Positions 46,902-63,290 of a stretch of DNA of 64,000 nucleotides are shown here, in pieces. The translations under genes were made by a program, and so were the position numbers. The stretch is from a virus, in the IMG/VR virus record IMGVR_UViG_3300011440_000001; one strand, given 5' to 3'. How positions within the stretch are numbered: the first letter of the stretch is position 1; each line of letters opens with the position of its first letter. The notes under the pieces were generated by a model that was not told where the DNA came from, made no database searches, and saw only the letters and a program-made list of their open reading frames with translations.

Positions 46902-47237
46902 TCATGTCGTGCTCCCGCTGACGTGACGGACCTCCTTCACAAGCTCATCGATCTTCGCGTGCGTGGCCCCCTGGCCACGGATGTTCTCCGTGATGAGGCG
47001 CTTGATCTCGTCGAAGATCCGCTCCCAGTACGCCGGGTCCAGAGACCCGGCGGTGCCCTGCATCGCCTGGGCAATGGCCCTGCCGACTGCCTCAGCGGTG
47101 GTGCGGATGATGGCTTCGGCTTCCTCCTGGTGCAGCGCGCCGCTGTCAGTATTCCGCGCCGTCAGTCTGCCAGCCATGAACAGCGCGACCGATATGACGA
47201 GGCCGAGAAGGCCGAGCAGCACCTGCTCGTTACTCAA
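46902..47237 (-). CDS. small membrane protein (holin/antiholin candidate)
   Basis: N-terminal TM LLGLLGLVISVALFMAG. Confidence 0.35.
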   Translation of the reverse strand: MSNEQVLLGLLGLVISVALFMAGRLTARNTDSGALHQEEAEAIIRTTAEAVGRAIAQAMQGTAGSLDPAYWERIFDEIKRLITENIRGQGATHAKIDELVKEVRHVSGSTT

Positions 47238-47734
47238 CCAGCGCCTCCAGGAAGTGCTGGCGTTGAGGTCACGAAGTTACCGGCAATGCGGTCGAGCTTG
47301 TCGGCGAGCAACTTGTACTGCGCGAACGGATCCAGGGGCTTGCCGTCGATGCTGCTCAGCTCGAAGTGTACCGGGTCGCCCCAGTCAGCACCGCAGCGCA
47401 AGCCGATCTCGCGCGCCAGATCGATCACGCGCTGTTGCTTGGCGTTCTTGTCGGCGCGGTCCTTCGCGTTGGTGATGCCGGCGTCGAAGGCTGCGGCTTT
47501 GCCGTTGTAGAAGGGATGGTGACGCGACAGGCCCACGGGGGCAGGCTGCGCGACGACACCGTACTTGGTGCGCGCCACGCCTGGGTTGCGCCTCCAGGTC
47601 TCGTAGAGCACTGCCTGGTAGCCGTACCCACGAGCGCCGGATGTCTTGGCGATGCTGATGCCTTCGGCGGCGGCGCGGGATTCCAATTCGTTAGCTTTTG
47701 TACCGAGTTCAGGGAGAAGGTCTGCTACGTCCAC
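47234..47734 (-). CDS. endolysin, peptidase M15 (VanY / L-Ala-D-Glu peptidase)-like
   Basis: Zn-ligand-like motifs SRHHPFYNGKAAAFD and DPVHFE. GTG with SD AGGAGGG. Overlaps the 3' end of the giant gene. Confidence 0.5.
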   Translation of the reverse strand: MDVADLLPELGTKANELESRAAAEGISIAKTSGARGYGYQAVLYETWRRNPGVARTKYGVVAQPAPVGLSRHHPFYNGKAAAFDAGITNAKDRADKNAKQQRVIDLAREIGLRCGADWGDPVHFELSSIDGKPLDPFAQYKLLADKLDRIAGNFVTSTPALPGGAG

Positions 47735-50700
47735 GTCCGCGCCCTCCTGCGCCGTACATCTGCTGCAGTCCGGGGCGGACCCCCTGGAGGCCGATTGGCT
47801 GGCGGTATCCTACCGCACTTCGGGCCAGCGCGTCTGCCTCTGCCCGAAGCCGCTCTTTCTCTTCGCCTCCCGCCACGTGCTCGCGCTTCCTGAGGCGGTT
47901 TACCTGCTCGACAGTGTTGCGCAGCCGCGGAAGGGCCTTGAGTGCATCGACGTGCTCCTCGCGGAACCTCTTGGCCCGCACCTCGTCGCGCATCTCGCCG
48001 GTGGTGTAGAACGTGAGAGTCGCGTGTGCATTGGCGGCGTCCATGTACTGCTCGTAGAGCTGACGCACCGGCTCGGTGTTGAACGGCGTGACGTAGTGGA
48101 ACACCCTGCCGATGCCGGTGGTCCCAGGGCTCAGGTCGTAGCGCTCCGGCGTGATCCCCGCCTTGGCGCCAGCGAGTTCTGCCCAGTCGATGATTTCCGT
48201 TCCAAGGCCGGGGACGTACCCAGAGATGAGGTTCTCGACCTTCGCAGGCGAGGTCAGCATCTCAATCTCCTTGAGCCCTGGCAGTGAACCCATCAGATCT
48301 GCGATGGCCTTGGCGGTGTTGGAGGTGCTGACGTAGTACTGGGCCTCTGGGAGCCGGCGCTCCTGTGACCCGCTGACGATCTTGGTGTTGGAGTAGCCCC
48401 TCCAGTTGGCGTAGTTCTGGATGATGGGGGCCAGCAGCGTCGGGGTTGGGTCCGGTATGCTGCGCCACATCTCCGCCGCCCACGCCTCGAACGCCCCGGG
48501 ATCTTCGTGGCGTGCCCACTCGAAGAGCGCCTCGAGCGATGTCGCGAACGCCAGGCCGAACTCGTGAGGCTTCGGCATCTGGTACCAGCCGCCGTTGGGC
48601 AACGGGATCATCCAGTACCTGGTCCTGATGTGGATCGGGATCGAGTCGAAGTCCTTCTCGCGCTCGAGAGCGTGGCGCAGCAGCACCAGGGCGATCGTCG
48701 GCAGGGTGATGCCCAGCACCGCGTTTCTCCAGGCGGTCGAGCGCGTCTTCGGGTCGGTGAAGGTATCTACGGACATCTTCCAGCCGAGCACGTTTGGTTT
48801 GAAGAACGCGCTGGTGACGGCCCACTTCTTGGCCCACGCTCCGCCCTGGGCGAAGTCGATCGTCACCATCCTGCCGGCGTAGCCCACGCGGATCATGTCG
48901 TCTTCCGTGGCGATGGTATCGGCGCCCATGGCGCGCATCTCGGTGAGCCGCGGGGCCATCTCAACAGCCATACCGAACTGCCGCATCACGTCGAGGACCC
49001 CGTTCGCCCAGCGCACCGGGGAAGTCGGATGCAGAGCGACGAGCTGCCGGACCTTGGCCATCTTTCCCCTGGCTGCCGTGCTGTAGGGCTTCGAGCTGAT
49101 GTGCTTGAGGATGAACTTCTCCATCTGCAGCGGGTCCAGCGACAGGAAGTGCGCCATGCTCGCGTAGGTTCCAGGCCCGCGCACCAGCAGTTCATCCATC
49201 TCGGTAGGGGTGATGCTGTTCCATCTGGCGACGAGCCCCTTGACCTTGCTGTGCTTGTCGATCCGCTCGAGGATCGAGCGGGCGAAGTCGGTCCCGATCA
49301 GCGCCATCCCAAAGTTCTTCGGGACATGGCGGATCTTGGCATCTTTCTGGGTCCTGACCTTCATGGCGAAGAGGTCGCGGGCCTGCCTCGCCCAGAACGG
49401 CGGCCACAGGACAATGCTCTCGCGCATGATGCGGGCGGCCGGCCCGAACAGCCAGCTCAGGATGGACACGTCCCCGCCGTCCAGGCCGAGCATCGCCTGG
49501 TAGGTCTGCTCCTCGCTCTCGCGGAACTGGAAGTACTTCTTCTTGCCACCGATCCACGCCGAGATGGTGCGCTTGCGAGGGTCGCGGCTGCTCGGCATCC
49601 AGAAGGTGAGCACGTCATCGAGCAGGTCAACATCGCCGCCGATCATATCGACCAGTTCTTTGGGCGACACTCCAAGGGCCTCGGCGATACGCGCGAAGGG
49701 GATCTTCGCCGGCTCAACCGGCGGTGGGACCTCGTTGCCCCAGCGCGCTACCTCCGGGTGGCTGCGGGCGAGCCTGATGAGCAACTGCCCCACGCGGTTG
49801 CCTTCCACGGACGCCATCAGATCGCGAGTCTGCTTGAGGGTGCTCTGAATCGGCGAGACGATGGGCCACACACCGCCTTCACGGCGGTAGATGCCCTTGG
49901 CGCGCCCTGCGAACTTCGCCGCGCCGCTTCCAGAAGCCTGGTCGGCCTCGATGAACTCCCTCCAGCGCATCAGCGGGGTGTAGACCTCGTTCATGTTCTT
50001 GATCCTGATGTACTGCGCGCGCGTGAGGAACCCCGCCTTCCAGCGGAACCGCAGCAGCCAGTTGTTGTACTCCTGGTACTTGTCGTATGCCTGCTTCATG
50101 GCGTCGTCAACGGCGTGGCGGGCCAGGACGGAATCGACCTCCTTGCCGGTGAGCCCGGTGTAGCGCTCGGGGCTCCATCCCCGCGTGCGCCTCAGGTAGT
50201 CGGCCTCGCGCGCCACGAAGTACAGGTCGATCTCGGTGATGGCGCGGTCGGCCACCGACCCGAGCGCTTGCTTCAGGCTGATGCCACGGCCCACCTCGTA
50301 GCTGGCCCCGTACTCCCAGGTGTCGGTCAGGATCGCGCGCATCGTCAGGCCATCTCGGGCCGCCTGTGTCGTGGCGATCATCCTGAGGTCCTCGGTGGGG
50401 TCGGGCACTGGCGCGCCCTCTCTCACCAGGGCATCGCCCAGCTTCTTGACGCTGTCGAGCGAGTCCAGGAAGCGGTACATGAACTTCTGCCACTTGGTGG
50501 GGAATGGGTTGTCGCCGGGGTAGTGCAGGTGGGTCATGGCGCGGGCGTACTCCGGGCTGGCGTCCCATGCCTGCTGGACGGAACGCGCCCAATCGACCAT
50601 GTCCTGAAGCTCTGGGAACTCGCGCACGGTTGCCGCCCAGATGGCAGAGAGTGTCGGCGCGCGGCGCTGCGCCTCCGCCGGGTCCTCCACCGTCAGGCGC

Positions 50701-53700
50701 GCCCACTCGGCGAACGCCTCCGAATAGATCGGCGTGCCCTTGGAGACCGCGTAGTCGCGCAGCAGCGCCCGGATCTCGGCCTGGATGCGCTTGCGCACAA
50801 GGCGCCGATCCGCAGGCTTCCCGCCGGTCGCGCGCTGCATGTCCGCGATGATGGCCTCGACGGCCATGTGCATCGTCTGGGCGAACTTGTTCGGGCTGCC
50901 CCCGTAGATCATCATCTGGAAGTGGTGGCCCAGGTCTTCGTGCGCGAGCGTGCCGAACGTCGGCGCCCCCTTGGTCCTGGTGAGTTGCGTGCCGGGGTGG
51001 TAGTCGGCCAGGGCACGCGCGTCGTTGCGGATGGCGTTGATGCGGATGTTGCGCTGCATCTTGCGGCTCATCTCGATGGCGAACTGGATCCGGCCCTTGA
51101 GTTCGCTCTTCTCGGATTCAGTGAACCGCCGCGGCAGCCACTGGCGCACCGCGTGCCACAGGGAGAACGGGTCCACACCGCGGAACGCCGAGCGCTTCGT
51201 CCTGGTCGGCCACTTCACCGCCGCCGCACCGGGGAGATCTGGCGGGAACGACGTGGGCGACTGCCCCGATGGCTGCTGAGGCGGCATGGGCGCCCGGCTG
51301 GCGGCAGCCCCCCTCTTCGGCTTGAGCCCGAACGCCTTGCCCGCGCCCCCAGGCGGCGGGGTCGTGTCGTCCCTGACGTTGGGAGCGATGCGGAACGTCC
51401 GGGCGAAAGACGCCAGGTGCGCTCCGGGCACGTGCCACTGCTCGCCGGAAGCGTTCGCCGCGGCATAGATGTCCACCTCGCGGATGCCGTTGCCGGCGGC
51501 CCACTCCGACAGCTCCGGGCGGTCCTTCATGACGGCGTTGCCGATGAGGTACTGGCCCTTGGTGTTGCGCCGCATGACCCACTGCTTGCCGGCTGCGCCA
51601 ACCTTCACCATGGGGACCTTCTCGCCGGCATCGAGGAATGACTGGAGGGTATCTGGTGTCGCGGCCAGGTCGATGATGTTGAACACGCGGGCGAGGCGGT
51701 CCCGGCGGCCGGGCGGCACGCGGTGCCCGCTGATGATGGCGTCTGAGGTCTCGATGGTCACGTAGTGGCGCATGTCGCGCTGCTCGAGGACCTGGCGCAC
51801 CCTGTTCATGTGGTTCAGGTCGCTCGACATGACGATGCCAGAGACCACGCTGAAATGGTGGCTCTCCTTGCTGACCCATCCCGACTCGCCGCCCTTGGCC
51901 CCAGGCACCCAGGCGAACATGTGCCCGGTGGCAACGTCGTGGATGGTGAGGTCTTCGGCCAGCGGCATGGACCTGAGGATCCGCCCCTTGCCGCGCTCGG
52001 TCTGGAGTCGCTCGCCATGGTCGAGCGCCATCTTGTACTCAACGGCGTAGCGCTTCATGAACATGTCGTGCAGGTCGTTGGCGACCTTGTGTGGCATCAG
52101 CAGCAGGTCGTTGAGGTACTCGCGCGAGCCGGCCCGCACGTCGAGCGCAGTGTGGGCGATCTTGTTGTTGTGGTAGAAGCCCTTGTTGAGGAACAGGCTC
52201 TTGTAGTCCGGGGGGATCCGGTCCCAGATGTTCTGGACGACATTGCGCCCGATGCGGTGGTCTATCTCGTGAGTGCTGAGGTTCGAGGTCGTCACCACAT
52301 CGGCCTGGCCGCGGCTCGTCACACCAAGCATCCTGAGCCTGTTGGCCACGGTGGTGAGGAACTTCAGCTCCGACCGGAACGGCATCTTCACCAGCGCGAT
52401 GATGGGGCTGGTGATCTGGTTGGCGCGGTCAACGCGCCCCATGCGCTGGAAGAACTTCGTCGCCGACCAGTCGTAGTCGATCGGCAGGAACACGCGCTGG
52501 CGATGGCCTGGCCCTGAGTCATAGACGTGGTGGGCGTCGAGCCCCGCAGAGCCAGCGTCCGAGATGATGAGGATGGGTTTTTCGCCCTTCTGGAAGGAAT
52601 CGAGCATGGCGATGCGCTCGTTGAGCGAATGGATCTGCCCCGTGATGATGGCGACCTTGTTCTCGCCGAAGCGCTCCTGGAAGGTCTTCACGATGTCGCG
52701 AAGCTGCGGCATGGTCTCGAGTTCGTCGGCCAGCATCTGCTTTGCGACCTGGGCGTCGGAGATCGTGTCGCCCTCTTTATCCATGTCGTTGATGAGCGAG
52801 ATCGCGGCGTCGAGCCGGCCGGCGCGCTCCTCGGCCACGGCCCCAGCCCCTCCCTTGGCTGCACCCTCGACGATGCTCACCACGATGCTCTTGGGGATCT
52901 CGCCCTCGGGGACGTTGTCCAGGTAGCCCTGGACCATGTCGAGGGTTGGGTCGAGCCTCCACTCCGCCATCATGCGCTTGACGTGGTTGGTGAGCTGCGC
53001 GAGCACCAGCATGCGGCTGCGGGCTGCCGATTTGCTGAAGCTCTTGCCCGTGCGCTTGTCCTTCGTGAACTCGGTCGCGGTGGTGTAGATCCGCCGCACA
53101 AAGTCAACGTAGGTGTCGAACACCCCCATGCGCTCCTCGGCCACCTCTGGCTCGTGGACCTGGTACTGCTGGCCGCCCTTCCACATCGACCGCGCGGCCC
53201 ACTTGCCCTTGCCCTTCCACTCGCGGACGAGCTGCTCCATCTCCGGCACGGTGATGGAGGTGTCGCCCGTGCTGGCGGCGCCTGCGACTCCTTGCGTGTT
53301 GCCCTGCTGGTCGGCATGGCCCGTGATCCAGTTGGCGTAGTTGTCGAAGTCCTGCGCCAGCGGGCCGAACTCGCGCAGGCCGACGTAGACGCGCAATTCG
53401 TCGGGGTCCTCGGCGGGGGTCGCCGTGAAGTAGAAGATCTGGGAGTTCTCGTCATCCAGCACCGCGCGCTGGAGGTTCATGAACGACTCAGCGCTGGCGG
53501 CAGGCGTTGTCCCGTAGACGTTCTTCAGCTCGTGGACTTCGTCGGCAATCCACACCACTGGGCCGGGGCTGGTATTGATCCAGTGCGCCATGGCCTGCTC
53601 GAACCCCACCATGTGGACCGGGATATTGGGGATGGCGATGAGGCGCACGTCCGTGGGGAACGGCGTCCATGGGTCCGATGGCCGGTCGGTCTTCGCCGCT

Positions 53701-56700
53701 GGGTAGTCCACCGCCTGCATCCAGGGGATGTCCTTGCCACCGACCTGCAGGCCCCCGACGTTCTTCACCTCCTCGGCGAAGAACTTGTAGATGTTCTGGT
53801 GGTTCTTGGTGCTGTAGATGATCCGCGCGGCGCCGCGGGTGCCGTTGCTCGTGTCGTACTCCCCGATGAGCCACTTCATCAGTCCGAGCGCCATGCGGCT
53901 CTTGCCGGTACCAACGTCGTAACCGGCGACCCTTCCATGGCCGGCGGAGAACGCCTGGGCGAGCAGGTCCACCTCTGAGCGCTGCTCATCGGACAGGCCC
54001 TCGAGGTACTTGTCGTCCACCGGAACGGCGATGGCCGGGTCCTGGACGGCAGCGAGCGAGCGCGGCTCTACGAAAAGTCGGAGATGGGGGTTTCCCCGTC
54101 GCCCAGGTTGCGGTGGAGAGAACTCAAAATGCGGAGAAGCCTGTACCTCATAGAAGTCGCGGATGCGTCTGACTTTGAACCGCGGCGCGAGTCCAGTTGT
54201 GTCGAGATCTGTCGTGCGAAGGCCCGCGCCCGAACGAATGGTGACGGTGGTTCGCCCGTCTCGTTGTGTCTCGGCCACCACGTCGGGAGCAGGTACCCCT
54301 GGTCCTCCTCCCACAGGTTCTCCAGGTCCTGGAGGCTGAACTGGTCCCGCGCCTGCAGGAGCCTGTCCTCCAGAGGCCGCTCCACCTCCACCGGGTCCTC
54401 TTGGAGGTTGTCCACCCACCCCTGGAGTTGGAGCTGGAGCTTTTGTGTCAGGTCTTTCCTCGGGTATGCCATCGGGGTTCTCCTCACTTCCGACCATCAG
54501 GTCGGCCACCTTGCCGATGCCTGGGATGGCGGTATCCTTGTGCTCCACGCGCTGGATGCGGCGCCACACACGCGGCAGCAGCGACACCACCTCGGGACCG
54601 AACTTCTGCGCCATGGTCTCGGCCCAGGCGCCGTAGGTGACAACCGGCGGCCCGTGCTGGATGCGCGCCGATGTCTCCACCGCTGCGGTGCCGACCTTCA
54701 CCAGCGCCTGCATGATCTTCGGCGGGATGGGCCGGACGGCTCCAGGCTCTTCCGGTGGTGGCCCGCCGGTGGGCTCCTGCGCCGCCACCACGCGGCCGAA
54801 CATCCCGCGACGCGGCCGGCGTCCAGCAGGGGGCTGTTTGGTTGGCTCACCGAGCCATTTGCGGATGTCGTCTTCCGCGGCCTCAGCCTCCTCTGGAGAC
54901 ACCAGCGTGTTCTGCGGTGGCGTGGGCGGGGCCACAGGCTCTTTCGTCGGGCGCGGGGCTGTGTTCGTCGGCTCGATCTTGTCTGCCGCGATGAGCGCCT
55001 CGCCCCACGTGCTCGCCTGGGCCACATGCTCCCGCAGCGGGGTCGGTGTCGTCTCCGCCTGCCCCTTGCGCGCCACGACGATGACGCTGCCGACGTTGGT
55101 GCCGCGGGTCTTGTAGCTGTCCGGCGGCATGGCGATGATGCCTTCCAGGGTGTGCTCGTTCCTGAGCCAGGAGATGAGCCCCTTGGCCTTGCCTTCGGTG
55201 ACGGACTCCATGTAGTGCTCTGGGAGCACAGCCACCAGGCGCGCGCCATCCTTGAGCAGCTTCATCGTCTTGAACACAAAGGCGTCTGCGATGTCGTCCT
55301 GCTCGAACGGCACGCGCGCTACGAAGCGGGTGCCCTTCTCCCACGGCGGGTTCATGATGGCCCCGTCGTAGACGGCTGTGTCCTGGTGCCTGAAGATGTC
55401 GGCCGCCGTGGCCACGTAGTCGAGTTCCCTCAGGACATCGGCGCGCCGCTGGTCCATCTCGATGGGGACCACATCATGTCCGCGCAGGCGGGCGGCCTCC
55501 GCGAGGTTCCCCGTGCCGGCGCTGGGCTCGAGCACAAGACCACCCTCGACCGGCGGCCCGAGCAGGTGCGCGGCGATCTGCGCGATCGGCAGGGGCGTTG
55601 AGAACTGCTGCTTGTCGCGGATCCCGAGCGTGCGCGTGCGGCTTCCGAAGATGCCTTCGACATCGGCGGCTGTGGCGATGGCGCTCGCTAGATGCGCACC
55701 GTGCGGAAACTTCTCGGCGAACAGGATGCTGGCCGCGCCCTCGAGCCCGTCGTAGACGGCGTCGATGAAGTCGGCGTCGATGGCGTCCACCGGCCTGCCG
55801 GTGAGGCTCACTGCAAGCTGCCTGAGTTCGGACGGCTTCTTGGGGATCTCGACCCCTTCGCGCAGGCGCGTGGCGAACGCCCGCGTGAGCAGCCGCACGG
55901 GAGTGTCAGTCGGCACAGCCTCTTCGGGCGGCGCGACGGCACGCTCCTTCGACGCGAGCACTCCGACCATCTTGTTGGCGATGAAAGAACCGAAGGCAGA
56001 GCGCGATGCGCCGCCTGCCTCCTGCAGCCCCTTGCGGTATTGCTCGAACTGCTCGCGCGTGGCCTCGCCACTCTTCACGCGCTCCCAGATGGCGAGATCG
56101 TCCTCGGTGAGTTCCGCAGGGTCGAATCCAGGCTTGAGGAAATGGCCGGTCTTGCCCTGCTCTTCCTCTTCGCGCTTGAGTGCCGCGATCTCTTCGTGGA
56201 ACGCTGCAAGCCGAACTGCGGCATCCTGGGGGGGCGCGCCAGCGCCGGTTGGAGGTTCAGCGACAGCGACGCCTGCCTCAGGTGGGGCCGGCGCTGGCGC
56301 GATCTGTTCCACGTGGAACACCTGACGTGTCACTTGAGGTTCCTGACCGACCTCCACCATGGCCCTGCCGCCAGGCTGCGGTCGTGCGACCTGCGCGCCC
56401 TTGTCGTTGATGTAGCTGACGAAGCGACCTTCACCGAAGTGCGGCACCACCACGCGGTCGCCTGGCGCGAACGTCACCTTCGGGGCAGCGGTCTCCGTGG
56501 GCGCCTCTGGCGGCGGCGCCTCAACCGGGGCCTCCATCGCCAGGTCATCGAGCAGATCCATGACGACCGCGCGCGCCTTGCCCTTGTCCGAATCTGGGTC
56601 AGCGAGCACCGGCAGGCCGCTCTCTCCACGCGCCACGAGCACTCCGGCGTCAGCCAGAGCGTCGATCAGCCTCTGATGCGCTTCCGGCGGCACGTGTTCG

Positions 56701-58565
56701 ATGCCTGGGATGGCGCGCGGGTCAGGTGCCGCTGGCGGTGGAGGGGGAGGCGGTTCAGTCGGTGGCACTTCCTGCGGCGGCACCGCGGCCGGGGCTGGCG
56801 GCTCCACGACGGGCGCGCCAGCACCTGGCTGGGCAGTAGCATCGGCGGGAGGGGCGACGCCGGGGCCAGGCGCCGGTGATGGCGGCGTGACAGGCGCAGT
56901 GCCGGGGGGCACCGCCGCAGGAGATGGTGGCTCAATGGGGGGCTGTGGCGGTGGCGCGGAAGGGGGCGGCGCAACCTCTGGGCCTTCCGGAGCGGGCACG
57001 CCTGGACCTGGCATCACACCGGGCGGCGGCTGACCGATTGTGGGACCCGGCGGAACGGCTCCCGGCGGAGCCTGCCCTGGCTGAGGCTGTGGAGGCTGAT
57101 ACCCAATCTGCCCCTGGAGATCGACGAGCGCCTTTCTGGCAGCCCCCCTAACCTGAGAGTCTGCCTTGACCTCGTAGATGACCGCCATCAGGGGGTCGCC
57201 AGAGCCTGCCCTGTGGGCGACCTCCTTGAACGCCTCGACCATGCCGGCTTCGTAGGTCAGCCCCTGGATTCCGTCAATGCCCATCGCGATCGCCGCGGAG
57301 ATGCGCTCGGCCATCGGACTGAGGGGCGCCGCCGGGGCGCCAGGCGTAGCAAGAGGAGGCTGCCCCTGGGGCACAGCGGCACCCGGAGTTTGAGGTGTGG
57401 GGGGTGCTGGCCCTCCAGCGGCAGCCTGAGGCGGAACCTGTGGCCCTGGGATTGGTTGTGCCTCTGGCGCGGCCCGCGGCGCCAGCGCTCCCATCCCGAG
57501 ACCGAGAGCCCCGCCAAGGACCCCGGCCTCCGGGACGCCCTCGGACACCGGACGGCCAGTGAGGATGTTGGAAGTCGCCTCCTGCCCCATCTCCTGGCCG
57601 GCCTCGGCAGCGAACCCGCCAACCAGTTGGCGCGCCACGCTCCTGCCGGGGCCGCCACCGAAGATCTCCTGAGCCGGCACAGCCGTCATCGGCACGTTGA
57701 TGGCGAACGCCAGGGCCGCAGCGCGGCCGGCCTCCTGGTCGGAGGCCCCAGATCTCTTCTTCTCGTCCCAGACGAGCGCCCCCTCGAAGAAGCTCTCGGT
57801 GATGATCGGCAGCGCGATCGCGCCAGTCTTCCCGGCGATGGCAGCACCTCCAACGCCAGTCACGAAGAACGGCGCGCTCGAGACCGCGGCTGCCGGCCCA
57901 TGAGCCATCCACCACGATGGGTTCAGGAGCAGCCCAGGCTTGTCGATGATGCTCTCGGCCAGATCTGGAGGCACCGGGTATTGGGTGCCGATCTTCTCGC
58001 CCTTGCCACGCAGCCTCTCGCCGATGTCTGTCGGGCCGTATGGCTGTGCTCTGCGCTCCTGGAGGACCTTCGCGTACGAACCATCCGGGAGGCCCCTACG
58101 CTGCTCCCACTCCCGGCGTGCCTGCGGGTCTTCGATGGGCGGCCATGTCAGGCGCTCCAGCATCTCCAGCCCAGAACCAGCGCCGGACACAAGTGAACTG
58201 ACTCCGCGCATGATGCTCGGGCCGATTTCCGCTGCCGCCGGTGGCATGGGCTCTGTGCGGAACTGACCGCGCTGCGTGGGCAGCGATGGCGGCGGTGGCT
58301 GCTGAGTCGCCCCGGCCCCCGGAGGGTGTGATGCTTCAGGGGCCAGGGCGGCTGCTGGCAGAGGCGGCGATGGCGAGCCGGCCCCTACAGGTGGGATCCC
58401 TTCATCTTGCTGCAGGTACGGCAGGCGAAGCTGCGCCGGGTCGGGCAGTTCACCAGCGCTCTCGATGAGGTCGTGGTACTTCTGCCGCACCCGCATCGGG
58501 TCGTGACGGTATTTGCGGCGGCCTGTCGTCGTTCCCGGTGGAGATGTGGTGGTGGCTGTGGCCAT
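47709..58565 (-). CDS. 3618-aa multidomain protein: Pro-rich disordered N-terminal ~900 aa, N6-adenine DNA MTase domain, SNF2/DExH helicase (N and C lobes), then an ~1100-aa C-terminal region (DarB-like antirestriction / virion megaprotein)
   Basis: MTase motif I VLEPSAGTGNL and motif IV AIMNPPW. Helicase Walker A VGTGKSRMALG, DExH box WIADEVHELKN, motif VI QRMGRVDRANQ. Single uninterrupted ORF. Confidence 0.7.
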   Translation of the reverse strand: MATATTTSPPGTTTGRRKYRHDPMRVRQKYHDLIESAGELPDPAQLRLPYLQQDEGIPPVGAGSPSPPLPAAALAPEASHPPGAGATQQPPPPSLPTQRGQFRTEPMPPAAAEIGPSIMRGVSSLVSGAGSGLEMLERLTWPPIEDPQARREWEQRRGLPDGSYAKVLQERRAQPYGPTDIGERLRGKGEKIGTQYPVPPDLAESIIDKPGLLLNPSWWMAHGPAAAVSSAPFFVTGVGGAAIAGKTGAIALPIITESFFEGALVWDEKKRSGASDQEAGRAAALAFAINVPMTAVPAQEIFGGGPGRSVARQLVGGFAAEAGQEMGQEATSNILTGRPVSEGVPEAGVLGGALGLGMGALAPRAAPEAQPIPGPQVPPQAAAGGPAPPTPQTPGAAVPQGQPPLATPGAPAAPLSPMAERISAAIAMGIDGIQGLTYEAGMVEAFKEVAHRAGSGDPLMAVIYEVKADSQVRGAARKALVDLQGQIGYQPPQPQPGQAPPGAVPPGPTIGQPPPGVMPGPGVPAPEGPEVAPPPSAPPPQPPIEPPSPAAVPPGTAPVTPPSPAPGPGVAPPADATAQPGAGAPVVEPPAPAAVPPQEVPPTEPPPPPPPAAPDPRAIPGIEHVPPEAHQRLIDALADAGVLVARGESGLPVLADPDSDKGKARAVVMDLLDDLAMEAPVEAPPPEAPTETAAPKVTFAPGDRVVVPHFGEGRFVSYINDKGAQVARPQPGGRAMVEVGQEPQVTRQVFHVEQIAPAPAPPEAGVAVAEPPTGAGAPPQDAAVRLAAFHEEIAALKREEEEQGKTGHFLKPGFDPAELTEDDLAIWERVKSGEATREQFEQYRKGLQEAGGASRSAFGSFIANKMVGVLASKERAVAPPEEAVPTDTPVRLLTRAFATRLREGVEIPKKPSELRQLAVSLTGRPVDAIDADFIDAVYDGLEGAASILFAEKFPHGAHLASAIATAADVEGIFGSRTRTLGIRDKQQFSTPLPIAQIAAHLLGPPVEGGLVLEPSAGTGNLAEAARLRGHDVVPIEMDQRRADVLRELDYVATAADIFRHQDTAVYDGAIMNPPWEKGTRFVARVPFEQDDIADAFVFKTMKLLKDGARLVAVLPEHYMESVTEGKAKGLISWLRNEHTLEGIIAMPPDSYKTRGTNVGSVIVVARKGQAETTPTPLREHVAQASTWGEALIAADKIEPTNTAPRPTKEPVAPPTPPQNTLVSPEEAEAAEDDIRKWLGEPTKQPPAGRRPRRGMFGRVVAAQEPTGGPPPEEPGAVRPIPPKIMQALVKVGTAAVETSARIQHGPPVVTYGAWAETMAQKFGPEVVSLLPRVWRRIQRVEHKDTAIPGIGKVADLMVGSEENPDGIPEERPDTKAPAPTPGVGGQPPRGPGGGGAASGGQAPAGAGPVQPPGPGEPVGGGPGVPAPDVVAETQRDGRTTVTIRSGAGLRTTDLDTTGLAPRFKVRRIRDFYEVQASPHFEFSPPQPGRRGNPHLRLFVEPRSLAAVQDPAIAVPVDDKYLEGLSDEQRSEVDLLAQAFSAGHGRVAGYDVGTGKSRMALGLMKWLIGEYDTSNGTRGAARIIYSTKNHQNIYKFFAEEVKNVGGLQVGGKDIPWMQAVDYPAAKTDRPSDPWTPFPTDVRLIAIPNIPVHMVGFEQAMAHWINTSPGPVVWIADEVHELKNVYGTTPAASAESFMNLQRAVLDDENSQIFYFTATPAEDPDELRVYVGLREFGPLAQDFDNYANWITGHADQQGNTQGVAGAASTGDTSITVPEMEQLVREWKGKGKWAARSMWKGGQQYQVHEPEVAEERMGVFDTYVDFVRRIYTTATEFTKDKRTGKSFSKSAARSRMLVLAQLTNHVKRMMAEWRLDPTLDMVQGYLDNVPEGEIPKSIVVSIVEGAAKGGAGAVAEERAGRLDAAISLINDMDKEGDTISDAQVAKQMLADELETMPQLRDIVKTFQERFGENKVAIITGQIHSLNERIAMLDSFQKGEKPILIISDAGSAGLDAHHVYDSGPGHRQRVFLPIDYDWSATKFFQRMGRVDRANQITSPIIALVKMPFRSELKFLTTVANRLRMLGVTSRGQADVVTTSNLSTHEIDHRIGRNVVQNIWDRIPPDYKSLFLNKGFYHNNKIAHTALDVRAGSREYLNDLLLMPHKVANDLHDMFMKRYAVEYKMALDHGERLQTERGKGRILRSMPLAEDLTIHDVATGHMFAWVPGAKGGESGWVSKESHHFSVVSGIVMSSDLNHMNRVRQVLEQRDMRHYVTIETSDAIISGHRVPPGRRDRLARVFNIIDLAATPDTLQSFLDAGEKVPMVKVGAAGKQWVMRRNTKGQYLIGNAVMKDRPELSEWAAGNGIREVDIYAAANASGEQWHVPGAHLASFARTFRIAPNVRDDTTPPPGGAGKAFGLKPKRGAAASRAPMPPQQPSGQSPTSFPPDLPGAAAVKWPTRTKRSAFRGVDPFSLWHAVRQWLPRRFTESEKSELKGRIQFAIEMSRKMQRNIRINAIRNDARALADYHPGTQLTRTKGAPTFGTLAHEDLGHHFQMMIYGGSPNKFAQTMHMAVEAIIADMQRATGGKPADRRLVRKRIQAEIRALLRDYAVSKGTPIYSEAFAEWARLTVEDPAEAQRRAPTLSAIWAATVREFPELQDMVDWARSVQQAWDASPEYARAMTHLHYPGDNPFPTKWQKFMYRFLDSLDSVKKLGDALVREGAPVPDPTEDLRMIATTQAARDGLTMRAILTDTWEYGASYEVGRGISLKQALGSVADRAITEIDLYFVAREADYLRRTRGWSPERYTGLTGKEVDSVLARHAVDDAMKQAYDKYQEYNNWLLRFRWKAGFLTRAQYIRIKNMNEVYTPLMRWREFIEADQASGSGAAKFAGRAKGIYRREGGVWPIVSPIQSTLKQTRDLMASVEGNRVGQLLIRLARSHPEVARWGNEVPPPVEPAKIPFARIAEALGVSPKELVDMIGGDVDLLDDVLTFWMPSSRDPRKRTISAWIGGKKKYFQFRESEEQTYQAMLGLDGGDVSILSWLFGPAARIMRESIVLWPPFWARQARDLFAMKVRTQKDAKIRHVPKNFGMALIGTDFARSILERIDKHSKVKGLVARWNSITPTEMDELLVRGPGTYASMAHFLSLDPLQMEKFILKHISSKPYSTAARGKMAKVRQLVALHPTSPVRWANGVLDVMRQFGMAVEMAPRLTEMRAMGADTIATEDDMIRVGYAGRMVTIDFAQGGAWAKKWAVTSAFFKPNVLGWKMSVDTFTDPKTRSTAWRNAVLGITLPTIALVLLRHALEREKDFDSIPIHIRTRYWMIPLPNGGWYQMPKPHEFGLAFATSLEALFEWARHEDPGAFEAWAAEMWRSIPDPTPTLLAPIIQNYANWRGYSNTKIVSGSQERRLPEAQYYVSTSNTAKAIADLMGSLPGLKEIEMLTSPAKVENLISGYVPGLGTEIIDWAELAGAKAGITPERYDLSPGTTGIGRVFHYVTPFNTEPVRQLYEQYMDAANAHATLTFYTTGEMRDEVRAKRFREEHVDALKALPRLRNTVEQVNRLRKREHVAGGEEKERLRAEADALARSAVGYRQPIGLQGVRPGLQQMYGAGGRGRGRSRPSP

Positions 58566-60271
58566 CAGTCGATGAGCCCGGCGAGGGCGAACATCCTGAC
58601 GACGAAGTCATCGATCGTCTCGCCCGCCGCGGCCTCATCGTACCCCTGCGCGAGCAACTCGTCCACAAGGGTCTGACCGATCTCTTCGTTTTCCATTCCC
58701 TCGTTGCGCAGATCGATCATGTAGTCCACGATCGCAGCCTCGCTCGAGAGATCCGGCCGGTCTTCTTCGTCCGGCACCTGCCCGCCGGTGGTGGGCGTGA
58801 TCGGCGCGCCGGGCATCTGAACTGTCGTCTGCCCGCCAGCCTGCCCTGTCGGCGCGGGCGCCCCAGGTGGCTGCATCAGGGTCGCCTCAGTTGGTGCGCC
58901 GGGAATCCCGGCTTCCGACATCAACTGGCTCGCGACCCGAGCCTCGAATCCGAGATCGATGAGTTCCCTGTACAGCAGCTCTGGCGTGCCGCTGCCGGCC
59001 TGGTAGCGCTTCGAGACGTAGGTGACTGCGGTGGCCGGGTCGATGATCGTCCCTACGACTCCAGCCCTCCCGGCAGCCCCTGCCCCCACCGCTGCCGGCG
59101 CCTGCCCTCCGGCCGCGGGTTCGTTTGGTTGCGGCGGGCCTGCTGGCGCCTGCTGTGGCGCCGGTGGTGCCGCGCCAGGCTCGCGCCACGACGGCGTCCC
59201 AGACGGTGGCCGCGGCGGAGAGCCAAGCTCGAGATCCCCGTTGCGCTTCATCTGGCGGTCGAGTTCGCGCCGCGCCTCGTTGAGTTCGCCTTCCAACCGC
59301 GCGATCTGCGTCTCGTTGAACGTCGCCTCAGCGGCTGCGAGCTGCCCCTCGATCGTCCCGACCTTGTCTCGCGCCGCCTCCTGGTCGCTGAAGATCGTCT
59401 GCCAGCGCTGCAGCTTCTTGATCTTCCAAGCGTTGTCGAGGTAGTGGTACTTGTCCCACGACTCATCGACTTTGCCCTGCTTGGGGGCGCCGGTCTGCTC
59501 GGAGCGCTTCTGCTGCATCCACACCGGATCGACAATCCATTTGCCTGGGCCAGTCTGGACGTATGGCACCTGCTCGCCTGTGGTTGGGTGCGGGACGATC
59601 TTCCGGTAGTTCGGGTCATCTGGAGCCATGCCCCCCGCGGCGGTGTCCGGCACGCGAGTGACGTGGCCAGTCATCGGATCCCTCATGAAGGTGATTGGGG
59701 CCTTGGTGACAGGATGGGGCTCGGTGAACAGCGGCACCTCGGCGCTGGTGACTGGCATCCCCAACAGCGAGAAGTCCCAGTACGGCGCGGTGAGGAAGTC
59801 ATGCTGCTTTTTCGGGTCGTAGACGTTGATGGGGATCCCGGCTGCCTTCAATTCCGCGAGGCGCCTGGAGGCGCGCTGGTGCATGACCGTCTCTGTGACC
59901 TTCGCGTCGTAAATGTTCGCCAGGTTCGAGCGGCCGGATTCGAGTGCCTCTGGTGTCGCGAACTCGCTCGGCGGGCGATGCACACCTTGCTGCAGGTAGA
60001 GGTCCGAGAGTTTGTTGGCGCCCTGGACCTGGGCTCTCCACTGCTGCACCGCGAGGGGCCACTTGAGGCCGCTCTTCCAGAAGCTCGGCGGCTTGATGAG
60101 GGGATCGTAGGTGGGGGCTGGCTGCCGCCTGGCTGGTTCTGCTGGCGGTGGGGTTGCGGCAGAGTCTGGTGTCGGCTCAGGCGAGGCTGCGCCGCGGCGG
60201 CGGCGGCGCGGCGGTGCTGCCGCCGGCATACCCGCCATCGCTGCCATGCGAGCCAGTCCAGGTCCAGGCAT
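58565..60271 (-). CDS. Pro/Ala-rich hypothetical virion protein (568 aa)
   Basis: Stop overlaps the start of the giant gene. Central coiled coil. Confidence 0.4.
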   Translation of the reverse strand: MPGPGLARMAAMAGMPAAAPPRRRRRGAASPEPTPDSAATPPPAEPARRQPAPTYDPLIKPPSFWKSGLKWPLAVQQWRAQVQGANKLSDLYLQQGVHRPPSEFATPEALESGRSNLANIYDAKVTETVMHQRASRRLAELKAAGIPINVYDPKKQHDFLTAPYWDFSLLGMPVTSAEVPLFTEPHPVTKAPITFMRDPMTGHVTRVPDTAAGGMAPDDPNYRKIVPHPTTGEQVPYVQTGPGKWIVDPVWMQQKRSEQTGAPKQGKVDESWDKYHYLDNAWKIKKLQRWQTIFSDQEAARDKVGTIEGQLAAAEATFNETQIARLEGELNEARRELDRQMKRNGDLELGSPPRPPSGTPSWREPGAAPPAPQQAPAGPPQPNEPAAGGQAPAAVGAGAAGRAGVVGTIIDPATAVTYVSKRYQAGSGTPELLYRELIDLGFEARVASQLMSEAGIPGAPTEATLMQPPGAPAPTGQAGGQTTVQMPGAPITPTTGGQVPDEEDRPDLSSEAAIVDYMIDLRNEGMENEEIGQTLVDELLAQGYDEAAAGETIDDFVVRMFALAGLID

Positions 60272-60285
60272 TTACGTGCGCGACC

Positions 60286-60570
60286 TCAGTATTCGGGGAT
60301 CGGCTTGCTCTTGCGCTTTGGCGCTCCAGGCGCCGGCTGTCTCTTGGCGTACATCGTCTTGATCGATGGTGCGCGCTTTTTCCGGTCGCCGAAGCCTGGG
60401 TATTTGGCACGAGCGCTCCGGTAGCCCTGCAGTGCCGCTGCCCAGCCGCTCGGCTGCTGCGGCGCGGCCATTCCAGGGTTCGGTGCTGGCGTCACGGTAA
60501 TTGGTGGCGGCTGCAGCTCCGGTCGAGCCGACCCTGGGTTCGCCATTCGTGGCGGGTTGAATGCTGCCAT
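60286..60570 (-). CDS. small Pro-rich basic protein (94 aa)
   Basis: ORF. Confidence 0.3.
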   Translation of the reverse strand: MAAFNPPRMANPGSARPELQPPPITVTPAPNPGMAAPQQPSGWAAALQGYRSARAKYPGFGDRKKRAPSIKTMYAKRQPAPGAPKRKSKPIPEY

Positions 60571-60585
60571 TGGCCTACCCTCCTT

Positions 60586-61161
60586 TCATCCTGCCATGCC
60601 GCCGGTGTAGAAGTCGGCGACGGCCCCGGCAGCGCGCCCCACGGCCTCGTAACGCTGCTTTCTGCGATTGAACTTCTCGAGATTCGCCTGGTAGCTAGCA
60701 GCCGCGTTCTGGTTGTAGAGATCCGCGGACTGCCCATACGCTTCACTCACGCCGCCCATCCTGAAGGCCAGGTCCGCGCGCGCCTGGCGCTCGCCCTCGA
60801 GCCCAACACGCTCGCCAAGCCTCATGCGGTCTTCGCGCTGGCCGCGCTCCACTCCTTCCTGGGCTTTGAGGTACGCCGTGCCCTTGGTGCCGTAGGGGCT
60901 CGTCGCGTAGATGTCGTGGACGCGCTGCTTCTCGGCCCCGCGCGCACCCTCCGACAACCCATACATCGTGGCCAGCGAGCGCTGCGAGTACCCCAGGCCC
61001 TGCTGGCCATATGGATCGGCACCGTAGAGCCCCTCGATGTCCTGCTTCTGGCGAGTCTCGTAGCCGCGGATCGTGCCCTTCTTCGGCTTGTAACCGCGGT
61101 ACTTCGGGCCACTGCCGCCGAATGCTCCCGTGATCTGCGCGCCCTGCTCTGCGAACGACAT
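60586..61161 (-). CDS. hypothetical virion protein (Gly/Tyr/Arg-rich, 191 aa)
   Basis: ORF. Confidence 0.4.
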   Translation of the reverse strand: MSFAEQGAQITGAFGGSGPKYRGYKPKKGTIRGYETRQKQDIEGLYGADPYGQQGLGYSQRSLATMYGLSEGARGAEKQRVHDIYATSPYGTKGTAYLKAQEGVERGQREDRMRLGERVGLEGERQARADLAFRMGGVSEAYGQSADLYNQNAAASYQANLEKFNRRKQRYEAVGRAAGAVADFYTGGMAG

Positions 61162-61179: not shown

Positions 61180-62784
61180 TTACAAGAGCGTCTTCACCAC
61201 GGTGAGTTCGGTGCCGGCGCTATTGTACCAGCACACATACAGATACGTCCCATCACTCGTGACGCCACAGGCAACCTGGTTCGCCTGGCCGGCCTTCCAT
61301 GGGTTGTTCTGGCTGATGTTGCCATTGCCGGCGGGCCACAGCGAAATCTCTCCGTCGCCTTCCTGCCAGATCCGGTAGTGCCCGTCGAAGTATCCCGTGT
61401 TCGCCGTGGCCACTACGGTGCTGCCAAACACGAAGCTCGCATCCAAGAACTGCCGGCCGACGCTGTAGTAGTTACCGCCGGTAGAAGTAGTGCTTATGAA
61501 CGTGTCGCCATCGAAGATGAGCGGCGCCCCGCAGTCCGCACCTCCGACGTTGATGCGGATGTCACCTGTATCGAGGCAGTTGCTTGACTGGTCAATGTCG
61601 CACGATCCCAGGTTCGCCGGGTCGCAACTCCTGATGCAGCACTCAGCAGAGCCAGCGTTCTCGGCCCACAGGATGGCTACCCGCTCTGTCCCGTCCCACT
61701 TCCACATCACCAGATCGCGCCCGTCCACGTCAGTGTCGATGTCGTAGGTGAGCTTCGTGGTGTCGCCTGTGGCGGCGACGGTGCGGTAGATAATCCGATC
61801 GTTGGTCATTGTGTTGTCTTGGCCGAGGGTGAAGATGGCGACCCCGCTCGTCTCAATCACGCTCGTCACAACGGCATCCACCGAATCGCTCGCCTCGAGG
61901 TCTTCGAGCGTCGTGACACCGTCGTTGGTCGCGATCTTCAGGAGACTTGGGTTGCGCGCGCCAGCGTTGCCGGCGGTGAGCACATAGACCGACCCATCGG
62001 GATGGCACTCCAGGTCCGCGGGGTTGTCCTCAGCCGTGAGCGAGATCGACGAGGTCTGCGTCATCGCCTCCTTGTTGAGTTTGAGCACATAGTCGAGCCC
62101 TGTGCTGGTGTCGTTCACGGCGACGTAGAGCTGTGCGTTGCAGTAGATGAGGTCCACACCGGCATCGGCCGTCAGCCCTGTCGTCTTGAACCGCGTCCTG
62201 ACATCGCCGACGAACACCTGGTCGCGGGCGGTGGCCAGATCGACGACATGCGCCGCCGAGCCGCCCAGCGAGTTCTGCAGCGCCGTGTCCAGCATTGAGA
62301 GGGTGATGGACCCTGACGTGAGTGGGTCTGCCCCGCCCGAGGCATGCCGCGAGGCGTGAAGGCTTACCAGCGTGCCGGTCTCCAGGATCTCGAGGTCTTC
62401 AATCTCGTCGGCGCCGCCGTTCTCGTGGCGCGCGCTATGGTCCTTGAACTGCGTGCTGCCATTGACCGGGTCGTCGATTGGGACCAGCTTGCTCCACACG
62501 ATGCTCGCGTTGGTCGCGATGTTGTCGTTGGTGATCTGGCCGTTGAGCACCGTGCAGGCCGCCGCCCAGTTATCGTTGAAGTCCGCGGCGCTGGGAACCT
62601 GGTTGAAGACGAAGATGTTCGGGATCTCGCAGGTCGTCGCGAGCACGGCCGTGGGGCCGAGAAGCTGCATGGACACCGTGAAGGCCGCCACCAGCAGGAA
62701 GGCCAGGCCGCCGATGATCCCGAGGCGCGCCCACGGCGGAAGCGTCATCACTGGCGAGGGTCGTCGCATTGGCTCATTGATCAT
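61180..62784 (-). CDS. tail fibre / receptor-binding-like protein with N-terminal TM/signal segment
   Basis: 534 aa, Asn/Thr/Ser/Gly-rich beta-like, repeated H-x-x-GGAD motifs, Cys-rich C-terminus. Confidence 0.45.
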   Translation of the reverse strand: MINEPMRRPSPVMTLPPWARLGIIGGLAFLLVAAFTVSMQLLGPTAVLATTCEIPNIFVFNQVPSAADFNDNWAAACTVLNGQITNDNIATNASIVWSKLVPIDDPVNGSTQFKDHSARHENGGADEIEDLEILETGTLVSLHASRHASGGADPLTSGSITLSMLDTALQNSLGGSAAHVVDLATARDQVFVGDVRTRFKTTGLTADAGVDLIYCNAQLYVAVNDTSTGLDYVLKLNKEAMTQTSSISLTAEDNPADLECHPDGSVYVLTAGNAGARNPSLLKIATNDGVTTLEDLEASDSVDAVVTSVIETSGVAIFTLGQDNTMTNDRIIYRTVAATGDTTKLTYDIDTDVDGRDLVMWKWDGTERVAILWAENAGSAECCIRSCDPANLGSCDIDQSSNCLDTGDIRINVGGADCGAPLIFDGDTFISTTSTGGNYYSVGRQFLDASFVFGSTVVATANTGYFDGHYRIWQEGDGEISLWPAGNGNISQNNPWKAGQANQVACGVTSDGTYLYVCWYNSAGTELTVVKTLL

Positions 62785-63290
62785 GTCGTCGGTCTCCTCT
62801 GCGCTGCGTCACGTTCCCAACGTTTCAGATACGCCACTGCCTTCACGAGGATCGCGTGGTCGTCCTTGACTCGGCCAAGCACCCAGTTGCACTGACGACA
62901 CAGAACGCCGCGTGGTCCGCGACCATCGTGCCAGTGGTCAGCGTGGGCGCCCGCCGGGCCACGACCTGTCGTCATCTGGATCCCGCAGATCGCGCATCTA
63001 CCCCCCTGCTCTGCCATCCGGGCTGAGTAGACCTCTGGGGTGAAGCCGTTCTTCAGTCGCTTCGCGGCGACGGCCAACTCCGCGAGCTTAGCTCGGTTCT
63101 TGCGCTTCCACTCTTCCGCCTTCGCTGCGTGCCGCTGCGGGTTGGCGTGATAGCGCGCCCGCATCGCTGCGAGCAGCCGCTCCCGGTGCTTGTAGTAGTA
63201 CGCCCGTCTCTCAGCTCGCGTTTTGGCTGGGGCGGCCTTGCGCCTCCGGCGCTGGGTCTCGTTGCGTCTCTCTTGGTGCGTTTGCATCAC
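62781..63290 (-). CDS. endonuclease VII-like HNH nuclease
   Basis: CAICG…AHADHWHDG…RGVLCRQCN matches the T4 endoVII/HNH zinc-binding pattern. Confidence 0.5.
   Translation of the reverse strand: MMQTHQERRNETQRRRRKAAPAKTRAERRAYYYKHRERLLAAMRARYHANPQRHAAKAEEWKRKNRAKLAELAVAAKRLKNGFTPEVYSARMAEQGGRCAICGIQMTTGRGPAGAHADHWHDGRGPRGVLCRQCNWVLGRVKDDHAILVKAVAYLKRWERDAAQRRPTT

Follow-up and report, generated by a model that had tools for sequence, protein, structure and literature searches.

A gene of 10.9 kb in a 64,000-nucleotide stretch of viral DNA (IMG/VR record IMGVR_UViG_3300011440_000001; the whole stretch is referred to as the window) encodes a protein of 3618 amino acids (aa), which is probably a phage-type polyvalent protein that is packaged, ejected partly unfolded and delivers a DarB-like methylase-translocase against host restriction. 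No part of the protein is conserved more widely than its C-terminal ~1140 aa, which are common to more than 4000 clusters of sequences. Because this C-terminal module, or chassis, is also common to gp75 of phage Bcep22 and is absent from DarB of phage P1, the protein appears to belong primarily to the giant ejection or polyvalent class, with the methylase-helicase as an exchangeable cargo. An original prediction, made from the sequence alone, had placed a DarB-like methyltransferase-helicase fusion here; the protein turned out to be DarB-like in architecture only.

The giant gene and its modules

The giant gene is real. Its open reading frame (ORF) lies at 47709..58565 on the minus strand, starts with ATG and spans 10,857 nucleotides, and the 3618 codons before the stop are uninterrupted, as had been claimed. 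The GC content at its three codon positions (0.68/0.50/0.83) follows the pattern of the other genes of the window, which has ~65% GC overall. From base composition only, the chance of 3618 stop-free codons is ~1e-40 by our own arithmetic, in which ~2.5% of random codons at 65% GC are assumed to be stops. The long plus-strand ORFs over the gene, also predicted, do exist (for example 48507-51641 (+), 1044 aa) and represent the stop-poor antisense frames commonly seen in a gene of 65% GC. No tandem DNA repeats were found beneath the Pro-rich regions, and terminator and promoter scans around the gene gave background level only.

Among 1.84 billion cluster representatives, a single full-length orthologue was recovered (P0126, 3602 aa), together with a handful of relatives at 29-40% identity. 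P0126 is collinear with the giant protein over aa 19-3459 at ~32% identity. The modules of the giant protein, from the N-terminus to the C-terminus, are as follows.

58416..58511 (-): N-terminal motif, aa 19-50; 47% identity to P0126
57483..57962 (-): hydrophobic island, aa 202-361; conserved, Gly/Ala-rich, hydropathy (KD19) peaks at aa 225-255 and 344-362
56706..57098 (-): Pro-rich linker, aa ~490-620; the most extreme one, unalignable with P0126
54930..55940 (-): helical N-domain and N6-adenine methyltransferase, aa 876-1212; QFSTP, EPSAGTG and NPPW motifs, type I HsdM / DarB-like
54072..54929 (-): Pro/Gly-rich linker between methylase and ATPase, aa 1213-1498
52011..54071 (-): Strawberry-notch-type SNF2-clade ATPase/translocase, aa 1499-2185; GTGKS, DEVH and QRMGRVDRANQ motifs, Helicase_C_4
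51321..52010 (-): post-helicase region, aa 2186-2415; conserved with P0126 only, no family assigned
51129..51320 (-): Pro-rich linker, aa 2416-2479; precedes the C-terminal module
50526..51128 (-): zincin-like domain (MPTase, ATLF/PPEP-like), aa 2480-2680; HEDLGH at aa 2542-2547, SEAFAEW Glu helix at aa 2615-2621
49341..50525 (-): central block (family sub-block 1), aa 2681-3075; no Pfam family or PDB match
47856..49028 (-): second block, aa 3180-3570; holds Pfam LPD38 and a hydrophobic helix at aa 3278-3300
47712..47855 (-): tail, aa 3571-3618; helical, Arg/Glu-rich, ends in GAGGRGRGRSRPSP

The C-terminal module is shared by a large family with different cargos

The module (aa 2480-3618) was used as query in an exhaustive HMMER (phmmer) search of the cluster representatives, which returned 4092 clusters at E<=1e-3, of which 468 reached E<=1e-30. 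In every case the module forms the C-terminus of a protein of 850-4100 aa, and the match falls into two blocks (query positions 110-595 and 700-1090, that is aa ~2590-3075 and ~3180-3570). What precedes the module differs among members: a phage lysozyme (P0002-4), ddrB-ParB with a helicase (P0128), RelA/SpoT, or the methylase-helicase (the window protein and P0126). A profile of the family matches Bcep22 gp75 at aa 3703-4581 (E 1.7e-42), gp20 of Bacillus phage Pony and a 2668-aa protein of Vibrio phage 41E34.2; the same profile gave no match to P1 DarB, DdrB, DarA or Sit. In Pony, Bcep22 and metagenomic relatives the module gene ends the virion module and adjoins the lysis genes. In Vibrio phage 41E34.2 it is followed by a 750-aa gene, with no lysis gene annotated nearby. 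Going by these sequence relationships, the giant protein is a deep branch of the C-terminal-module family, with a plasmid-type Strawberry-notch cassette as its cargo.

The ~1100 aa after the helicase had been described as lacking any assignable motif. This part of the prediction did not hold, since both a likely zincin-like domain and LPD38 were found there. LPD38 (PF18857) is matched at 1.5e-33 over aa 3304-3467 (nucleotides 48165-48656), and it is in the second block only that the family overlaps a described domain, LPD38 being found in 29 of 30 members. Apart from LPD38 in Pfam, the ~900 aa of the module beyond its zincin-like start gave no structural or family match, and a PDB sequence search with aa 2440-3618 returned none. 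The helix at aa 3278-3300 was considered as a transmembrane segment of the family and rejected; the family consensus is polar there, and in the model the segment falls within a region of bundled helices.

The HEDLGH motif of the zincin-like domain lies at 50925-50942 (-). In the family alignment the conserved pattern is HExGH...EGxAEF, and the canonical HExxH is present in 122 of the 153 members; the window protein and its nearest relatives carry a one-residue insertion (HEDLGH in the window protein, HEVLGH in P0001, HEAIWH in P0126). In an AlphaFold2 model of the module the predicted local distance difference test score (pLDDT) is 70 overall and 79-93 in the zincin part; helix 58-75 contains HEDLGH and helix 134-148 the Glu motif (module numbering). 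The MPTase core of polyvalent proteins has been described as an N-terminal helix, a three-stranded sheet, an HExxH helix and a Glu helix, and HEXXXH variants are on record (PMC5512222); the order of elements in the model agrees with the core of Iyer et al. A zincin fold is therefore likely from the model. The best structural neighbours of the domain include Pro-Pro endopeptidases, and the protein is full of poly-proline linkers. The domain may cut the Pro-rich linkers, an idea that the PPEP resemblance makes testable and no more. For the chassis as a whole, capsid incorporation and/or ejection would be the most likely role, and self-processing a possible one.

The giant protein and its family avoid cysteine

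Not one cysteine occurs in the 3618 aa, as against 0.87% in the other 32 called genes (P ~2e-14). The avoidance extends through the family: 153 members hold 48 cysteines in 293,022 aa, and 125 of them have none. The 120 non-phage Strawberry-notch homologues, by comparison, contain 0.50% cysteine and none is cysteine-free, which suggests that the cassette lost its cysteines on joining the module family. P1 DarB has nine.

The three genes upstream of the giant gene encode cysteine-free proteins as well. The four genes (191, 94, 568 and 3618 aa) form a contiguous cysteine-free block at 47709-61161 (-), and the proteins just upstream of it have 12 (534 aa) and 5 (908 aa) cysteines. Beside P0126 the corresponding proteins of 195, 82, 496 and 3602 aa have 0, 0, 0 and 1, and the two genes upstream 8 and 6. 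Known ejection proteins behave alike: N4 gp52, gp51 and gp50 have none, nor do the C-termini of 11 N4-like virion RNA polymerases (vRNAPs), and T7 gp14, gp15 and gp16 have 1, 0 and 0 against 2-5 in most other T7 virion proteins. Passage of N4 gp50 in an unfolded or partly folded state through a channel of ~35 Å has been argued (PMC13434306), as has such passage across the envelope for very large ejection proteins generally (PMC8402733). The cysteine-free block would thus mark a four-gene ejection block and fits an unfolded or partly folded crossing of the envelope. No report linking ejection proteins with lack of cysteine was found in the searchable literature; cysteine avoidance as a family feature is our own observation and not a published criterion.

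The catalytic motifs of the methylase and the ATPase are intact

The five motifs quoted in the original prediction are all present: VLEPSAGTGNL (aa 1011-1021), NPPW (1072-1075), GTGKS (1552-1556), DEVH (1675-1678) and QRMGRVDRANQ (2040-2050). All of them stand on invariant columns of a 40-sequence alignment of the window protein with 39 Strawberry-notch methylase-helicases, in which QQFSTP, EPSAGTG, NPP, GxGK, DE and QxxGRxxR are invariant. Pfam matches (N6_Mtase, Helicase_C_4, Helicase_C) and Foldseek matches to SNF2 remodelers and to the HsdM protein 2okc bear out the fusion of a methyltransferase to an SNF2/DExH helicase. Structure prediction of slices had been proposed as a check, and an AlphaFold2 model of aa 876-2075 confirms the methylase and SNF2 folds.

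The first enzyme is a type-I-HsdM-like N6-adenine methylase with intact catalytic motifs. It scores 22.1 bits with N6_Mtase (cut-off 20.4), matches many PHROG 'DNA methyltransferase' families, is modelled at pLDDT 85-93 and finds 2okc at E 5e-9. The BLASTP alignment with P1 DarB is restricted to this domain (24% identity over 196 aa, E 2e-4), in which FSTPLPIA corresponds to YYTPKPIA (the TP motif), LEPSAGTG is common to both and NPPW corresponds to NVPF. LPD36 is said to precede the methylase of the methylase-helicase dyad (PMC5512222). The Pfam scan gave no LPD36 before the methylase, no comparison with the LPD36 profile being made, and a helical region (aa 886-985) precedes the TP motif.

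The ATPase is of the Strawberry-notch type (PF13871/PF13872), unlike the SNF2-rel_dom type of DarB. Pfam matches comprise Helicase_C_4 (the Strawberry notch C-terminal domain, 1e-25), Helicase_C and a weak AAA_34, which is below the cut-off in the window protein (22.2 vs 27 bits) and above it in P0126 (55.5 bits). DarB matches SNF2-rel_dom, ResIII and Helicase_C, and in a pairwise comparison of the two ATPases motif VI alone aligns, weakly (E 0.007). Foldseek neighbours are Chd1, SMARCAD1, Mot1, ISWI, INO80, CSB, ZorD and SsoRad54 (E 1e-11 to 1e-8). A PDB sequence search with aa 900-2460 gave no match.

The methylase-ATPase cassette is collinear with Strawberry-notch methylase-helicases of ~1450 aa at 24-28% identity, with the catalytic residues invariant. 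By sequence, the closest relatives of the ATPase appear to be these ~1450-aa proteins of conjugative plasmids; tblastn located cassette homologues in 488 plasmids, 289 of them conjugative, mostly alphaproteobacterial. The proteins of plasmids and integrative and conjugative elements have the methylase, AAA_34 and Helicase_C_4 cassette in common with the giant protein. Unlike it, they are stand-alone, without the Pro-rich N-terminus or the zincin-LPD38 module, and their C-terminal ~300 aa cannot be aligned with aa 2186-2415. The cassette is complete in P0126 even though identity is no higher than ~32%, which indicates purifying selection.

The N-terminal region is proline-rich and partly conserved

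The N-terminus had been described as ~900 aa of Pro-rich disorder. Proline richness was borne out (20% in aa 1-100, 40% in aa 501-600), and uniform disorder was not; aa 19-50 and 202-361 are conserved islands and the methylase unit starts at about aa 876. The island at aa 202-361, of which aa 202-305 are conserved in P0126 and aa 229-361 in the family member P0141 (E 4.5e-13), is a candidate for the membrane-interacting part of an N-terminal ejection domain. The rest of the N-terminus fits a flexible linker, as it is unalignable even with P0126. Further along, most of aa ~1172-1487 is modelled at pLDDT below 50, apart from short stretches of intermediate confidence in aa ~1228-1339, and aa ~1280-1500 are conserved with P0126 only.

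The giant gene ends a late virion operon

The late or virion-block location proposed for the gene was confirmed. On the minus strand of the window lie genes for the major head protein (7147-8448), a portal-like protein (11406-13712), a terminase-like protein, endonuclease VII (62781-63290) and an endolysin-like protein (47234-47734). An identical giant protein is encoded on a 63.5-kb Logan contig (L008, 63,510 bp), in which 3 of the 26,292 positions compared with the window are different. When mapped to this contig, the ends of the window come to lie ~2.3 kb from each other on a map of ~66.3 kb that is circular or permuted, so that the two minus-strand blocks would form one late operon. The missing ~2.3-kb piece falls within a 908-aa virion gene, and the assemblies of the window and of the 63,510-bp contig differ in length.

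The operon ends, in aa lengths, with 693-190-95-908-121-endonuclease VII-534-191-94-568-giant-endolysin; the giant gene is thus the last of the virion operon, after the 191-, 94- and 568-aa genes and before the endolysin. The order 908-121-534-191-94-568-giant matches 815-121-486-195-82-496-3602 beside P0126 (L037). The genes next to the giant gene are as follows.

60586..61161 (-): 191-aa gene, Cys-free; 46% identity to the 195-aa gene in the same slot beside P0126; candidate small ejection protein
60286..60570 (-): 94-aa gene, Cys-free; between the 191-aa and 568-aa genes
58565..60271 (-): 568-aa gene, Cys-free; its stop overlaps the ATG of the giant gene (TGATG); candidate middle ejection protein
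47234..47734 (-): endolysin-like gene, 166 aa; shares 26 nucleotides with the 3' end of the giant gene; the virion block ends and the lysis genes start here

The endonuclease VII gene (62781-63290 (-); PHROG 2914, E 2.5e-21) interrupts the run of tail and ejection genes after the 121-aa gene and before the 534-aa gene. Since the orthologous run beside P0126 is without it, it seems to be a mobile insertion or one acquired recently. The sequence of the 534-aa protein (61180-62784 (-)), which contains 12 cysteines and, near its N-terminus, a strongly hydrophobic stretch (KD19 2.25 at aa 21-39), suggests a membrane-anchored or secreted virion or assembly protein; it is kept beside P0126 at 33% identity.

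Relation to known giant and ejected proteins

Giant proteins of podophages have repeatedly been called 'DarB-like' (PMC9144972, PMC6630229, PMC6606913, PMC8402733). They include Bcep22 gp75 (4602 aa), JC1 gp69 (4515), Agrobacterium Atu_ph08 gp21 (4877), Serratia Parlo (3764) and Erwinia Pavtok gp27 (5007), those of Parlo and Pavtok being compared here by size and 'DarB-like' label only. JC1 gp69, 79% identical to gp75, was identified by 51 unique peptides in mass spectrometry of CsCl-purified virions (PMC9144972); according to that paper, Bcep22 had been analysed by mass spectrometry as well (Gill et al. 2011). As in the window, gp75 and gp69 are encoded by the last gene of the virion module, after genes of ~190 and ~510-570 aa and before the lysis genes; gp75 also has the same C-terminal module, by profile hidden Markov model (HMM), and likewise zero cysteines. 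Methylase and helicase domains are predicted in Atu_ph08 gp21 (PMC6630229). However, gp75 and gp21 carry an N-terminal lytic transglycosylase or cell-wall hydrolase domain (PMC6630229), which Pfam does not find in the window protein, and the latter is also ~1000 aa shorter. It is not a close relative of gp75.

P1 DarB (2255 aa) resembles the window protein in having the methylase N-terminal to an SNF2-clade ATPase and in its late-gene location. DarB is, however, without the zincin-LPD38 module and the long Pro-rich N-terminus, and its packaging in the myovirus P1 depends on DarA, Hdf, DdrA and Ulx. With a different ATPase subtype, no Dar partners and additional N- and C-terminal modules, the window protein is not a DarB orthologue. 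Of the DarB likeness that had been claimed, the methylase and its order before an SNF2-clade ATPase stand.

A fitting class description is that of the polyvalent proteins (Iyer, Burroughs, Anand, de Souza and Aravind 2017, PMC5512222), in which disparate domains are joined in one giant among virion genes. At least two disparate activities are expected of the class, and a methylase, an SNF2 ATPase, a likely zincin-like domain and LPD38 occur together here. Major head, portal-like and terminase-like genes lie on the same strand, and the endolysin gene follows directly. The methylase-helicase dyad, the zincin-like MPTase including its HEXXXH variant and the phage-only LPD38 are all features described for polyvalent proteins, and a Strawberry-notch helicase has been seen in only few of them (PMC5512222).

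A functional parallel is offered by N4 gp50, a tripartite ejected protein of ~3500 aa with an N-terminal ejection/membrane region, an enzymatic middle and a large C-terminal region that opens with a zincin-like domain and without which encapsidation fails (PMC13434306). N4 gp50 is likewise Cys-free with flexible interdomain linkers, and its gene takes the slot after the small and middle ejection-protein genes. The vRNAP gene of N4 also ends a virion gene run, the N4 lysis genes being elsewhere. Its cargo, however, is an RNA polymerase and not a methylase-translocase; Pfam, PHROGs and NCBIfam found no RNA polymerase family in the window protein, and no phmmer or HMM similarity to gp50 was detected. 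The likeness to gp50 would thus be one of functional analogy only. The size series 191/568/3618 aa parallels both N4 gp52/51/50 and T7 gp14/15/16 (196/747/1318 aa), gp16 being the largest of three consecutive ejection-protein genes. A lysozyme stands at the N-terminus of some relatives of the window protein, and the annotation of T7 gp16 likewise includes an endolysin domain.

Other observations on the window

A megablast of 44-64 kb against 50,697 phage records gave no DNA-level relatives. The neighbouring structural proteins had no tblastn match to Bcep22 and no phmmer match to N4 proteins, and an identity as a Lessievirus or a recognisable schitovirus was rejected on that account. The gene content suggests a short-tailed phage.

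A tRNA-Pro gene (anticodon UGG) lies at 20205-20280 (+), and the giant protein contains 9.3% proline, the products of the other genes 5.6%; codon usage in the giant gene shows no particular preference for CCA that would match this tRNA, and a link between the two is unproven. A tRNA-Met gene is at 36667-36744. ARAGORN further reports a tRNA-like gene of 90 nucleotides at 27559-27648 (+), whose anticodon has four bases (TTAG) and for which no amino acid is given; this could be an artefact or a frameshift/suppressor-type tRNA. In the strand-switch region, a 365-aa ORF (24502-25599 (+)) matches nine PHROG families of unknown function. Multiple stretches match per family (four for phrog_7713), which suggests that the product is internally repetitive.

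Proposed function and alternatives

The giant protein is thus interpreted as the large ejection (internal virion) protein of a phage of ~66 kb and 65% GC, a 'third ejection protein' of beads-on-a-string build, as in the translocation model proposed for the N4 ejection proteins (PMC13434306). It would be synthesized late, coupled to the upstream 568-aa gene, and a few copies would be packaged by means of the C-terminal chassis. After adsorption it would be expelled behind the small and middle ejection proteins (191, 94 and 568 aa), partly unfolded, via the narrow tail channel, a route that fits the family-wide absence of cysteine. The N-terminal ~870 aa would engage the ejection conduit or the inner membrane, by analogy with the N-terminal domain of N4 gp50, and the protein would refold at or in the cytoplasm. 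There the translocase would track along the entering genome, and the methylase would modify or occlude the DNA before a host type I-like restriction system acts on it, as P1 DarB does in cis. DarB, the sole experimentally characterised methylase-helicase of such architecture, protects against type I restriction (PMC5512222), and an anti-restriction function would be expected here by analogy.

Several points weigh against this interpretation. For the phage of the window we infer virion presence, ejection, methylation and anti-restriction alike. No pairwise similarity to Bcep22 gp75 was obtained with BLASTP or phmmer, and the link is made through the family profile. The helicase subtype differs from that of DarB (AAA_34/Helicase_C_4 vs SNF2-rel_dom), and tblastn found no homologues of DarA, DdrA, DdrB, Hdf or Ulx in the window (chance-level E >= 0.047), with ~2.3 kb of the genome lying outside it. 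The module gave no HMM match to the encapsidation region of the N4 vRNAP, and hhalign against 12 N4-like C-termini (E 0.046, probability 1.2%) aligned the HExxH motifs alone. The HExxxH insertion occurs in only 4 of 153 members and peptidase activity is uncertain. The N-terminal island is only moderately hydrophobic (KD19 ~1.3-1.5) and was found in two relatives only (P0126, P0141), and a dedicated search with aa 195-370 returned nothing. Cysteine depletion could also stem from an oxidising extracellular life of the virion instead of unfolding.

The same architecture can be read in other ways. The translocase, tethered at the inner membrane, might pull in the genome, a task that falls to transcription by RNA polymerase in T7 and has been discussed for the N4 vRNAP, with methylation as a by-product or second function. 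Its closest structural neighbours are double-stranded DNA translocases that track the duplex without unwinding it, no change is seen in its Walker A, Walker B and motif VI, which are invariant, and the giant gene occupies the N4 gp50 slot in a similar gene order. A paper on DEV reportedly refers in its title to a genome ejection motor, and for N4 it has been left open whether an ejected enzyme is part of the ejection motor (PMC13434306). Many family members, however, have no ATPase (lysozyme with LPD38, RelA/SpoT), so that the phage class has no general need of one, and the cassette is also frequent on conjugative plasmids, whose DNA is moved by the conjugation machinery; import by this ATPase is therefore unlikely. 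A more elaborate form of it, in which the island anchors the protein at the inner-membrane end of the ejectosome, the translocase reels in the genome, the methylase marks it and a PPEP-like zincin cuts the poly-proline linkers to release the modules, would be a self-processing, membrane-tethered import machine, and is rather a long shot. The target might also be a defence other than restriction, with the protein acting against BREX, DISARM or Zorya-like systems, stripping or remodelling proteins bound to host DNA, or acting on host DNA itself. SNF2-type ATPases do occur in defence systems, and the weak DrmD match and the ZorD neighbour suggest mimicry or competition; polyvalent proteins have moreover been proposed to have several targets (PMC5512222). 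The NCBIfam match to DISARM DrmD nevertheless lies far under the cut-off (17.6 vs 610 bits) and DarB protects against type I restriction, which makes such a counter-defence or host take-over role quite improbable.

It is the chassis and not the cargo that is conserved in more than 4000 clusters, and the lysozyme-chassis layout of relatives resembles T7 gp16 with its N-terminal endolysin-like domain. The protein might then be mainly a structural core or conduit protein with enzymatic relics, its chassis serving in channel building, retention of the DNA end or control of capsid pressure. Relics would hardly keep the catalytic motifs of both enzymes intact on invariant columns, and the purifying selection suggested by P0126 speaks against them too; we regard a mainly structural role as very unlikely. 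Scarcely credible is a protein that stays out of the virion and modifies progeny DNA before packaging as a late cytoplasmic methylase-helicase. Methylation of progeny DNA is a common phage strategy, and the virion presence of the protein in the window phage is only deduced. Yet the gene lies inside the virion operon, the module is common to gp75, whose homologue JC1 gp69 was detected in virions, and the extreme avoidance of cysteine is absent from non-phage Strawberry-notch homologues. A packaged and ejected anti-restriction protein thus remains the preferred interpretation.

Implications

Giant DarB-like proteins of podophages and the polyvalent protein class are already well documented, and the current picture of how giant ejected proteins work is unchanged by these results. 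What the giant protein contributes is a deep-branching lineage, at ~32% identity to its nearest full-length relative and with no annotated phage relative, in which a plasmid-type Strawberry-notch cassette is carried on a common podophage ejection chassis, linking the counter-restriction kits of phages and conjugative elements. The defences of the host encounter giant injected proteins before any other phage product, and the cargo domains of these proteins are an inventory of what has to be neutralised in the opening seconds of an infection. The contiguous cysteine-free gene block is a simple marker of composition that could help to annotate ejection proteins in uncultivated phages. Most worth following are the extent of the largely undescribed ~1100-aa chassis and the family-wide cysteine-free signature; such a composition may be a general, usable signature of tail-ejected phage proteins.

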